This document shows, piece by piece, positions 15,001 through 18,000 of a stretch of DNA of 64,000 nucleotides; the first letter of the stretch is position 1; every line of letters starts with the position of its first letter. Origin of the DNA: Parcubacteria group bacterium Gr01-1014_29 (lineage in GTDB: Bacteria; Patescibacteriota; Minisyncoccia; Ryanbacterales; 2-02-FULL-48-12). The position numbers are program-made. The stretch is from contig VMFT01000009.1 of the NCBI GenBank assembly GCA_007376195.1, positions 11,067-75,066 of the forward strand, given 5' to 3'.

Positions 15001-18000
15001 GCTTAAGCTCATGCAATCGTATCGCTTTGATAATCTTTTGGAAATTGGTTATGGCTCCGGTATTTTCTTGCCGACGCTTTCCAAAATGGCGAGAAAAGTA
15101 ACCGCTTTGGATATTCATAAAGAAACGGCGGCAGTGCGGCGGACGCTTGACTGGTATCAGGTCAGCAATGTTGAATTGGTATCGGACGACATCATGAAGA
15201 TGCCGTTTCAAGATCAAACGTTTGACGGGTGCGTTATTGTAAGTACATTGGAAGATATTAAAGATTCGGCGCGGGCTGTGGGGGAGATTAAGCGCGTGCT
15301 CAAACCGGGCGCACAGCTATTCGTATCGTTTCCGGTTGAGAATAGTGCTACCAGCGCGTTCTTTCGTTTGGTGGGCGAGGATCCGCATGAAATTCATCCG
15401 TCGGATCATCGCTATATTCTTGATTTTTTGGGGAAGAATTTTACCATAGAGCGCGTGTTGAAATATCCCTCATTTTTGCCCGTTGATTTGTCGTTGTATG
15501 TTTCAGTTCAGTGCAGAAACTAAAAAGCTTTTTCTTTTCGTGTTTGCCGCAAAGATTTTTATCTTGGGCATTTTTCTCTTTGTTTTTGGCGAAGACCGGT
15601 TGTTGTGGGCGGATTCACCCTTGTATCTCGATTTGGGACGGAATATCTGGCTTGGCAACGGGTTTGGCACCACAGCATCAAATGGAGCGGTAGTTTTGAG
15701 CACGCGGTTTATGCCGCTCTATCCCGCTGTGGCAGGATTTTTTTCGTTGGTTCCGCACGGTCTTATTTTTTTGTCGCTCGTGCAGGCAGTCGCAGTCGCC
15801 GGCATTGCTGTGTTTATTTATATGATTGGGTTATTTTTTCTCCCGCGCCGGTGGGCGCTTAGCACAACGCTCGTTGCGTCATTCGAGCCGCTTACTTCGG
15901 CGATGCATATTCTTGCAATGCCAGAAACTATCTTTGTATTTTTGTTGACAGGGTTTTTATATTTTTTCCTCCGCTATCTACGAGATATCGGAAGTCGGAC
16001 TTCCGATGATACTCCGTCGGAAGTCGGACTTCCGATGATGGCGATTTTTTTATTGATACTTGCCGCCTACACAAAACCAGCTGCATTGTATCTCTCCGTG
16101 CTCCCGGTTTTATTTTTAGTTTTTGCCAAGCGCCGGTACGCGCACGCGGGATTGTTTGTTATTACATTTGCGCTCGCGTTCATTCCGTGGATGGCCCGCA
16201 ACGCCGCCGTAGGAGGCAGTTTTGCCGTAACAAACGATGATACCGGCAATATTTGCGGCTGGACCTTGCATGGTGTATTAGCTACCAAATACAAAGGTGA
16301 TCCGACCGATTGGAACACCACAGCGGGTTCGCCCGAGTTTCTCCGGGCACAAGAGAAATGCACAAGCCCCATTGGGGCGCTTCGCTTGTTTCTTACTGAA
16401 TATCCCGGGCCGTTTGTAAAAACAATGGCGCTCTCGTCGCTTTCGTTGTTGACGAATGATGGCTACTCCGTGTTTTTTGAAAAGCCGCAGGAAGAGCAAG
16501 TTAAACCGCATCACAATTTTCTTACCCCCGCCGTATTTGCAATGAGTGATTGGAAAGAAAAATTTATGGCAGCTCGTAGAGAATTTTCTCTCACGGAACT
16601 ATTCATAATTTTTGCCGGAAAGATTTTTTGGTTCCGGCCCTATTTCTCTTCATAGTGATCCTTTATTTTGTGGGCGCTATAATTTTTAGTACAGCGTATG
16701 GAGCGGGCGCGCGCTTGCGCTACCCCATTGATGCCCCATTGATGATTTTTGCCGCGTATGCCATTGTGCATGCCATAAGGGGGCGTATTCATCATGGCAA
16801 CGAACATCCTCGGAATTTCAGCGTTTTATCACGATAGCGCCGCCTGTCTTTTGCAAGATGGGCGTATTGTGGCGGCTGCGCAGGAAGAACGCTTTTCCCG
16901 CAAGAAACATGACTTCCGGTTTCCTCGGCATGCTATTGAATATTGTCTGCGCGAGGGCGGCATACTCATAGACGATATTGATTATGTCGCGTTTTATGAT
17001 AAACCATTTTTGAAGTTTGAACGGATACTTGAGACGCATCTGTGGCGCGCCCCGCGCGGGCTTCGTTCGTTTCTTGCGGCGATGCCTGTATGGCTGAAAC
17101 AGAAACTTTGGACACGCGAGCTTATTCATAAAGAGCTCGGCTATGGCGGTATGATATTGTTTCCGGAGCATCATGAGTCGCACGCCGCTTCCGCGTTTTT
17201 CCCCTCTCCGTTCAAGGAAGCAGCTTTTTTGACCATTGATGGCGTCGGTGAATGGGCAACGGCTAGTTTTGGCGTGGGCAAAGAAAACCATTTGAACATA
17301 CTGGCAGACATTCAATTTCCGCATTCTCTGGGGCTTTTGTACTCGGCATTTACCTATTATCTTGGTTTTAAAGTAAATTCCGGTGAATACAAGGTTATGG
17401 GGCTCGCGCCCTATGGCACGCCGGTTTATCGCGATCGTATAGTAAAAGAGCTTATTGATATAAAAGAAGACGGCTCGTTTCGACTGAACATGAATTATTT
17501 TAATTACGCGGGCGGATTTACCATGACAAATAAAAAGTTCCATGCGTTATTTGGCGGTCCGCCGCGAAGTCCCGAGTCCGCGCTTGGGCAGCGCGAAATG
17601 GATATCGCGCGTTCTTTGCAGGATGTTATAGAAGAGGTAGTGCTGCGTATGGCGCGCTATGTCCGTAAAGTTACGGACATGCGGTATTTATGTTTGGCGG
17701 GAGGTGTTGCGCTCAATTGTGTTGCAAATGGAAAACTGTTACGCGAAAAGATATTTGATGATATATGGATACAACCAGCTTCGGGAGATGCCGGAGGTGC
17801 GGTGGGTGCGGCATACGTTGTGTGGCACGAATATCTTGGAAACGCGCGCGTTACGAATGGCATCTCTGATGCAATGAATGGCGGGTATCTCGGGCCTTCA
17901 TTTTCGGACGAGGAGATTGAGAAATTCTTGCATGCAAACAAAGCGTCGTTTGAACGCCTCGCGCCGTGGGAACTAGCGAAGCGCGCAAGCGAACTTTTGA

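Follow-up and report, generated by a model that had tools for sequence, protein, structure and literature searches.

The stretch of DNA analysed here (64,000 nucleotides, hereafter the window; all coordinates are positions within it) comes from Parcubacteria group bacterium Gr01-1014_29, a tiny groundwater bacterium. It contains four copies of a short palindrome, TCGGAAGTC-S-GACTTCCGA, arranged as two tandem pairs (15988/16017 and 24150/24172) that lie in frame inside two very distantly related genes for membrane glycosyltransferases of the GT-C fold. These four units are likely to belong to a Patescibacteria-wide family of elements resembling repetitive extragenic palindromes (REPs) and REPINs. 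The family has a cognate gene for a Y1 (HUH) protein similar to those of IS200 and to the REP-associated tyrosine transposases (RAYTs), and the units were probably mobilised by this protein. More tentatively, at somewhat less than even chances, we propose that they represent a phylum-wide, undescribed REP-Y1 system in which every gene of the very large Y1 family carries its own palindrome at three sites, and in which the stop-free GGAAGTCSGACTTCC has spread into coding loops of housekeeping and surface-glycan genes across classes and is actively kept intact. If this proposal is true, the palindrome has a DNA-level function or undergoes ongoing templated homogenisation, and its copies are not passive relics. 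The genomes of Patescibacteria, or CPR (candidate phyla radiation), are small and streamlined, and their repeats have been little studied.

Palindrome pairs in two glycosyltransferase genes

Both copies at the first site are on the + strand and have the sequence TCGGAAGTC-G-GACTTCCGA. Copy 1 (15988..16006) is read in its gene as (I)GSRTSD, and copy 2 (16017..16035), identical in sequence, is read in another frame as SEVGLP(M). The tandem array as a whole (15988..16039, + strand) consists of two identical 23-nt units, TCGGAAGTCGGACTTCCGATGAT, each made of the core followed by TGAT, with ACTCCG between them. At the second site, copy 3 (24150..24168, + strand) is TCGGAAGTC-C-GACTTCCGA, which by its centre base has the opposite orientation, and reads SEVRLP. 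Copy 4 (24172..24190, + strand), TCGGAAGTCCGATTTCCGC, has two mismatches to the 19-mer and one to the 17-mer within it, and reads (V)GSPIS. With C at their centres the copies at 24.1 kb are the reverse complement of those at 16.0 kb, and the two pairs thus form an inverted repeat of 24 nt, 92% complementary, with 8.1 kb between its halves.

The preliminary description of this region reported a 17-bp palindromic unit occurring twice, 29 bp apart and in frame, in a GT-C gene at 15987-16040, and again in a different GT-C gene at 24151-24189. Sequences and coordinates proved correct at both places: the 17-mer CGGAAGTCGGACTTCCG is at 15989-16005 and 16018-16034, with a spacing of 29 bp, while CGGAAGTCCGACTTCCG is at 24151-24167 and CGGAAGTCCGATTTCCG, with one mismatch, at 24173-24189, with a spacing of 22 bp. 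The size given for the unit needs revision, since the dyad extends to 19 bp (9-bp arms, TCGG...CCGA) in three of the four copies. When up to two mismatches were allowed, the window contained exactly four matches, compared with 0.02 expected from shuffled sequences; none of 100 shuffles reached four. Half-sites alone occur at chance level, with three solitary copies of CGGAAGTC in the 64 kb. Neither site matched an Rfam family, and a scan for terminators and promoters gave no call at either one, its totals being at the level of shuffled sequence.

The palindrome core, as can be read directly from its sequence, is free of stop codons in all six frames, and the copies of each pair differ from one another in the frame in which they are read. 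The added peptides that had been described are indeed encoded in frame: translation across the insert gives IGSRTSDDTPSEVGLPMM for the open reading frame (ORF) at 15483-16655 and FSEVRLPTVGSPIS for that at 23811-25205.

The first host gene (15483..16655, + strand) encodes a GT-C fold membrane glycosyltransferase, here of 390 aa, with the insert in a turn between two transmembrane helices. It is shortened in the window by a frameshifting 61-bp deletion relative to ENA contig k139_312969, where the product has 472 aa; the NCBI protein (385 aa) agrees with the truncated form. The second (23811..25205, + strand) encodes a PMT_2-like GT-C glycosyltransferase of 464 aa, with the insert in the loop at residues 115-123, between helices 87-114 and 124-139. 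A further GT-C (PMT_2) gene of the same cluster, at 20628..22202 on the + strand, lacks the palindrome and served as an internal comparison. Pfam family PF13231 (PMT_2) matches ORF 23811 weakly and also matches ORF 20628; it is carried by most homologs of ORF 23811 and by the more distant homologs of ORF 15483. Alignments of homologs show an invariant Asp in the first loop of both host families. The structure of the first host was represented by a model of its 87%-identical ortholog P0001 (predicted local distance difference test, pLDDT, 86.6). In Foldseek searches this model matched structures of AglB, STT3, ArnT, PglB and PMT, and the GT-C label is therefore right. The two host genes had nevertheless been called paralogs, which overstates their relation. 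Both have the GT-C fold, but tblastn detected no similarity between them at E < 1e-3, and the palindromes are the sole sequence that they have in common.

As the preliminary description predicted, the inserts are placed in loops, and at non-homologous positions, since the two sites lie between different pairs of helices. In the P0001 model the insert occupies residues ~160-180, between predicted helices 142-163 and 172-192, where pLDDT dips to ~71; in the model of ORF 23811, pLDDT of the insert loop is ~72 (the dips across both models are ~71-73). The flanking helices are modelled confidently, and both inserts are predicted to form short connections between long helices. In canonical GT-C topology the N-terminus is inside and the catalytic first loop outside; if that topology applies, both insert loops would be cytoplasmic. 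The inserts are most likely neutral decorations of these loops in both glycosyltransferases.

Orthologs of the host genes exist both with and without the extra residues. An alignment of 24 homologs of ORF 23811, none above 52% identity, shows a gap of eight residues in every one of them, precisely at the insert. In orthologs of ORF 15483 at 37-48% identity the loop is short and free of the insert (for example RDNRPAD), whereas the syntenic orthologs at 62-87% identity all have extra sequence at this loop, in varied form. P0001 matches the window in its 29-bp period and has two perfect 19-mers. In P0008 two cores in opposite orientation make up a near-perfect 52-bp palindrome, translated in other frames as RKSDFR and then EVGLP. 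The doublet of P0006 is decayed, and P0004 has only the remnant of a half-core, TCGGAAATCCGAC. P0003 (locus L121:3001-4440) carries, at the loop corresponding to 15988-16039 of the window, an inverted doublet of another palindrome, TGTCATTCCCACGAAAGTGGGAATCCAG, which encodes SFPRKWESS and LDPRFRGDDK; by its sequence this second palindrome fits the CGTC type of REP (PMC3733652). Unrelated palindromic elements appear to have used this loop as a common landing site. Because distant orthologs lack the extra residues, while close ones have varied copies or a doublet of another REP at the same loop, these comparisons support the insertional origin first suggested for the units, rather than shared ancestral codons.

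At the DNA level, the core is retained while its surroundings drift. P0001 and the window gene are 87.3% identical in nucleotide sequence, yet none of the 38 bases in the cores has changed (P ~0.006 if they varied at the rate of the whole gene); five differences fall in the 10-nt spacer, and both 3' flanks have changed together from TGAT to TAGT. Even in P0008, at 66% identity, there are two 17-mers without a mismatch. The core might be kept intact by selection on the DNA, by conversion between copies or by re-insertion.

Distribution of the palindrome and its association with Y1 genes

We searched 596 Gb of sequence, with one genome per species, for the 19-mer. It was found at 150 or more positions in at least 115 stretches (the matches listed are a lower bound), whereas by our own calculation ~9 matches would be expected by chance. 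Almost all carriers among the listed matches are metagenome-assembled genomes (MAGs) of Patescibacteria from many classes, including Saccharibacteria, Paceibacteria, Nomura-, Wolfe-, Azam-, Uhr-, Doudna-, Lipton- and Jorgensenbacteria. The density of copies is very uneven between genomes, with dozens in some MAGs. No match to the core was found in IMG/VR viral contigs, and there is thus no sign that it is carried by phages.

The centre base is C or G in 142 of the 150 listed copies; A or T centres occur mostly in a few records from outside the CPR. The consensus of the family core is A-NNN-TCGGAAGTC-S-GACTTCCGA-NNN-T. Its flanks are variable (ATAT, AAAA, ACTG and others) and often self-complementary, with A at -4 conserved in 82% and T at +4 in 80% of copies, and tandem pairs are common among the listed copies. 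Only 42 of 142 listed copies lie inside ORFs of at least 120 aa, although such ORFs account for 84% of the bases, and the element is therefore mainly extragenic: roughly 70% of listed copies are intergenic and ~30% are in frame within genes. In-frame hosts include PurD (at the same site in two genomes), GatB and UvrC (two genomes each), CysS, ATP synthase gamma (AtpG), MurD-like ligases, TsaD and others. Single, non-tandem copies are present in essential genes of other genomes. Copies within genes use three frames, encoding SEVGLP/SEVRLP, RKSDFR and GSPTS/GSRTS. These odd peptides of 6-9 residues in CPR proteins are footprints of a probably mobile palindrome rather than protein motifs, which matters for annotation, alignment and structure prediction.

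Two genomes showed unusual arrangements of the core. A contig of a Nomurabacteria MAG (JANYAX010000036.1; locus L015:900-4000) has seven perfect cores within 3 kb, one of them in frame in a reverse-transcriptase (RVT_1) gene adjoining a Y1 gene. In MAG H43-bin147_1 (JBBTVT01; loci L007, L046, L059, L074, L080 and L113) the core lies within a longer repeated unit, ...caattttaatttttattattctaact[ag]-core-cgata...aacataa[ct]aa[tg]ggcgaccg, present in dozens of copies. This looks like the expansion of an element of the MITE (miniature inverted-repeat transposable element) kind that carries the palindrome.

The hosts of four of the in-ORF copies match the Y1_Tnp family PF01797 (E 4e-10 to 1e-6, above the gathering score), and their sole NCBIfam match is to the RAYT family NF047646 (E ~1e-10). 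The HUH motif (NHFHLL) and conserved tyrosines are present in the alignment of these Y1 proteins. A Y1 gene is present in 10 of the 115 listed loci that bear the core. In complete Y1 loci one core precedes the start by 12-49 bp, a second lies about a quarter of the way into the gene, and a third follows the stop by 11-113 bp. This layout is the REP/RAYT ("REPtron") architecture with the addition of a translated copy inside the gene.

To avoid circularity, we took an independent sample of 80 Y1 homologs from JGI metagenome contigs on protein similarity. Thirteen of these 80 genes have the same core in the three-site layout; elsewhere in those loci it occurs at 0.06 per kb. Most of the other sampled genes have a different palindrome at the three sites, such as GGAAGTTAAACTTCC, CTTACGAGGCTAAGCCTCGTAAG, TGTCGCTGTCSGACAGCGACA or TATGGACATCSGATGTCCATA. 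Sharing of identical words of 11 or more bases was counted in the 68 Y1 loci with both flanks, with the second half of the gene as a control. Upstream and downstream sites shared such a word in 62 loci, upstream and internal sites in 59, downstream and internal sites in 57, and all three sites in 53; the controls gave 8-10. Some Y1 genes have an extra palindrome in their second half, seen as matches in the control. The palindrome variant also follows the protein lineage: it is shared by 41% of nearest Y1 neighbours, compared with 8% of random pairs, and by 77% of pairs at 70-80% identity. Among copies dispersed in the flanks, the variant of the resident Y1 gene occurs at 0.10 per kb and other variants at 0.002 per kb, a difference of ~50-fold.

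Across the sampled Y1 loci (L122-L201), many palindrome variants have a common apex, GTC-S-GAC or ATC-S-GAT, on differing stems. Judged from the sequences, this suggests that the hairpin loop may be recognised by its sequence and the stem by its shape. Of 8,000 candidates scored for the Y1 family, 7,996 had E <=1e-10, which makes it a very large one. Members are named "transposase" in the databases and come from Nomurabacteria, Paceibacterota and Patescibacteria. EV[GR]LP is encoded at a fixed site in 97 of the top 120 members. With hairpins at both ends and inside the gene, and a specificity that co-evolves with the protein, this family offers a natural system for studying hairpin recognition by HUH proteins and the persistence of REP-type elements.

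Proposed mobility and alternative explanations

A single unit can be folded into a hairpin with a 9-bp stem and a 3-nt loop (-8.3 kcal/mol, z -4.8). For the doublet at 15988..16039, folding as single-stranded DNA is predicted to give a single long hairpin of the REPIN kind (-21.8 kcal/mol, z -5.8). If the Y1 enzyme acts in the manner of its analogues, TnpA of IS200/IS605 and TnpA-REP, it would recognise the hairpin that the palindrome forms in single-stranded DNA and would copy or move the palindrome, probably as doublets. Landings in non-essential loops would add just 6-9 residues per copy and so could persist. The copies in genes would have been tolerated owing to their position in loops and to the absence of stop codons from every frame of this variant. 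In the source genome, two doublets would have landed in this way in inter-helix loops of two unrelated GT-C glycosyltransferases.

Several observations weigh against assigning the window units to a mobile REP-Y1 family. No transposition event, population polymorphism of empty and filled sites, or enzyme activity has been observed. The Y1 proteins score 37-41 bits against NF047646, for which the cut-off is 80, and thus fall below the RAYT threshold; searches of the protein and its profile against PDB sequences gave only a non-significant match (E ~1), to ISDra2 TnpA around the HUH motif. A cognate Y1 enzyme in the source genome is an unproven candidate: tblastn found no Y1 gene in the window, and ~20 kb of extra DNA from the same sample was not searched for one. 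That extra DNA has no further copies of the core, so that the visible total is four copies at two sites in ~85 kb. Judged by their centre bases, the doublets of the window are direct, unlike the inverted doublets of classical REPINs. Finally, the palindrome has neither GTAG nor CGTC, the tags by which the described REP superfamilies are defined.

The alternative that survives best, though we consider it unlikely, is that the palindrome is a maintained DNA site which is not currently mobile, bound by a dimeric protein, by a nucleoid or replication factor, or by Y1 acting as a regulator, and that copies in genes are selected as such sites. A perfect dyad with a one-base centre is typical of dimer operators, and the fixed three-site layout around and inside Y1 genes resembles autoregulation. 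The core that is unchanged at 87% ortholog identity and near-perfect at 66%, while the spacers diverge, would also fit such a site. However, the genes that contain copies are unrelated, as are the positions within them, and all three frames are used; copies have decayed or been lost in some lineages (P0004, P0006), and their density differs greatly between genomes. A maintained site would also leave unexplained how new copies appear in coding loops. Maintenance as a binding site and mobility may coexist.

Phase variation is an attractive but unsupported and considerably less probable explanation. Here surface-glycan transferases would be switched on and off whenever slippage or hairpin-stimulated deletion changed the number of units by one. 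The periods of 29 and 22 bp are not multiples of three, so that a change by a single unit would put the gene out of frame, and the first site shows concerted evolution of its two units. Both doublets are in genes of a glycan locus, and both sites fall in GT-C genes, which make up ~11% of the window (p ~0.01 for two matches, by our own calculation). Against this, exactly two in-frame units are found in two independent assemblies and in the 87%-identical ortholog, with no length variant among the assemblies and ortholog compared, and in other genomes the palindrome occurs as single, non-tandem copies in essential genes.

We give still less weight to the possibility that the palindrome is a DNA uptake sequence of the competence machinery of Patescibacteria. 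Conservation across the phylum, in coding and non-coding DNA, of a motif that is free of stops in every frame would agree with such a role. Known DNA uptake sequences, however, occur about once per kb, whereas the window has four copies in 64 kb with no enrichment of half-sites, the many lineage-specific variants co-vary with the adjacent Y1 gene, and copies cluster around that gene. Slightly less credible again is a role of the oppositely oriented pairs as recombinase sites for inversion of the 8.1-kb segment between the GT-C genes. The pairs do form a 24-nt, 92% complementary inverted repeat within a glycan gene cluster, but inversion would join the 5' parts of both genes to antisense sequence and destroy them, both public assemblies are colinear, and the motif occurs singly in housekeeping genes of other genomes.

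The remaining explanations are negligible. A conserved peptide motif, to which the similar peptides encoded in both host genes might point, was rejected on the use of three frames and the intergenic position of 70% of copies, and gene conversion between the two hosts on the absence of any other similarity between them. TCGGAAG resembles the start of Illumina adapters. An adapter or assembly artefact was rejected, since many studies, and the three pipelines NCBI, ENA and Logan, have yielded assemblies with the motif, which has its arms in the reverse order to an adapter dimer, is restricted to one clade, and has many sister variants around Y1 genes.

Known palindromic elements and other repeats of the region

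Mobilisation of the palindrome by a Y1 protein, the reading that we prefer, places it closest to the REP/REPIN-RAYT systems of Proteobacteria. Like them, it is a short, hairpin-forming palindrome, dispersed and, across its carriers, mostly extragenic, often in doublets, that is found on both sides of a Y1 HUH transposase-like gene and whose sequence co-varies with the lineage of that gene. A GTAG or CGTC tetranucleotide at the end of the hairpin defines the REP superfamilies (PMC3733652). The CPR element has instead A at -4 and T at +4. It further differs in that its palindrome is perfect with a one-base centre, its 19-mer is common to several CPR classes, its Y1 gene has a third copy translated inside, its proteins score below the RAYT cut-off, and its hosts are Patescibacteria and not Proteobacteria.

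In-frame palindromic inserts had been considered rare outside Rickettsia, a view that does not hold. A catalogue of intragenic REPs of the GTAG and CGTC types spans several phyla, and dimers or grouped repeats account for more than half of its entries (Di Nocera et al. 2013, PMC3733652). Those elements, too, are in frame in genes of known function, including repair genes such as uvrA and uvrB, with the inserts thought to be tolerated in loops or linkers. The CPR palindrome belongs to another, untagged sequence family and has an evident cognate transposase-like gene, whereas the CGTC REPs have none; the ortholog P0003, as described above, has a true CGTC-type doublet at the loop of the first host gene. 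Insertion of REPs into genes is therefore already known, while the CPR family and its three-site layout appear to be undescribed. In a literature search that did not cover all journals, we found no paper with the core sequence and, among the top-ranked results, none that describes this REP-Y1 family, and a survey of HUH proteins (PMC6006769) does not mention the CPR.

Comparison with the Rickettsia palindromic elements (RPEs), drawn in the preliminary description, is apt, in that these are also palindromic repeats in frame within genes that they do not destroy. RPE-1, however, measures 100-150 bp, and a CGTC tag marks RPE-4 and RPE-6, whereas the CPR unit has 19-27 bp and no CGTC tag. RPEs are confined to Rickettsia and have no known associated transposase; the CPR element is found in Patescibacteria. 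IS200/IS605 elements and their small derivatives (PATEs) resemble the CPR system in having a Y1_Tnp gene bounded by hairpins and small derivatives that bear hairpins. In the CPR system, however, the left and right hairpins are one perfect palindrome that is also present inside the gene, rather than distinct imperfect subterminal hairpins, no tnpB was seen, and the dispersed units are far shorter than PATEs. Cyanobacterial HIP1 and DNA uptake sequences are likewise short motifs that occur across a large clade and are tolerated in coding DNA, but the CPR motif has a much lower density, is linked to a transposase and has many lineage-specific variants.

The window also contains an unusually large surface-glycan region for a small genome. 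At least five GT-C/PMT_2-like genes lie in the 64 kb (~4972-6447, 15483-16655, 20628-22202, 23811-25205 and 51052-52437), and the window is rich in GT2 and GT4 transferases, methyltransferases, a carbamoyltransferase and sugar-nucleotide enzymes. Relative to ENA contig k139_312969 (locus L116), the window has clean deletions of 204, 118, 61 and 96 bp at 7933/7934, 14804/14805, ~16631-16633 and 26396/26397, all in coding sequence; outside these four indels the two are 100% identical. The deletions could be assembly differences or strain variants.

Other repeats were noted in the window. A second repeat, GCCTCNGGCKGAAAA, has three + strand copies (14853-14867, 52408-52440 and 56243-56276), compared with 0.05 expected. 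At two sites it forms the second half of a double hairpin (TCCGCCAGAGGCGGA-TCAGCCTCTGGCTGA-AAA), and two copies are close to an ATG start, no more than ~10 bp upstream of it. The window further has long inverted repeats or near-perfect palindromes at 12998-13095, 20352-20462, 41490-41541 and 46441-46548. Three of these are palindromes of 98, 52 and 108 bp, and one is an inverted repeat with 35-nt arms and a 41-nt spacer, just upstream of the GT-C gene at 20628.

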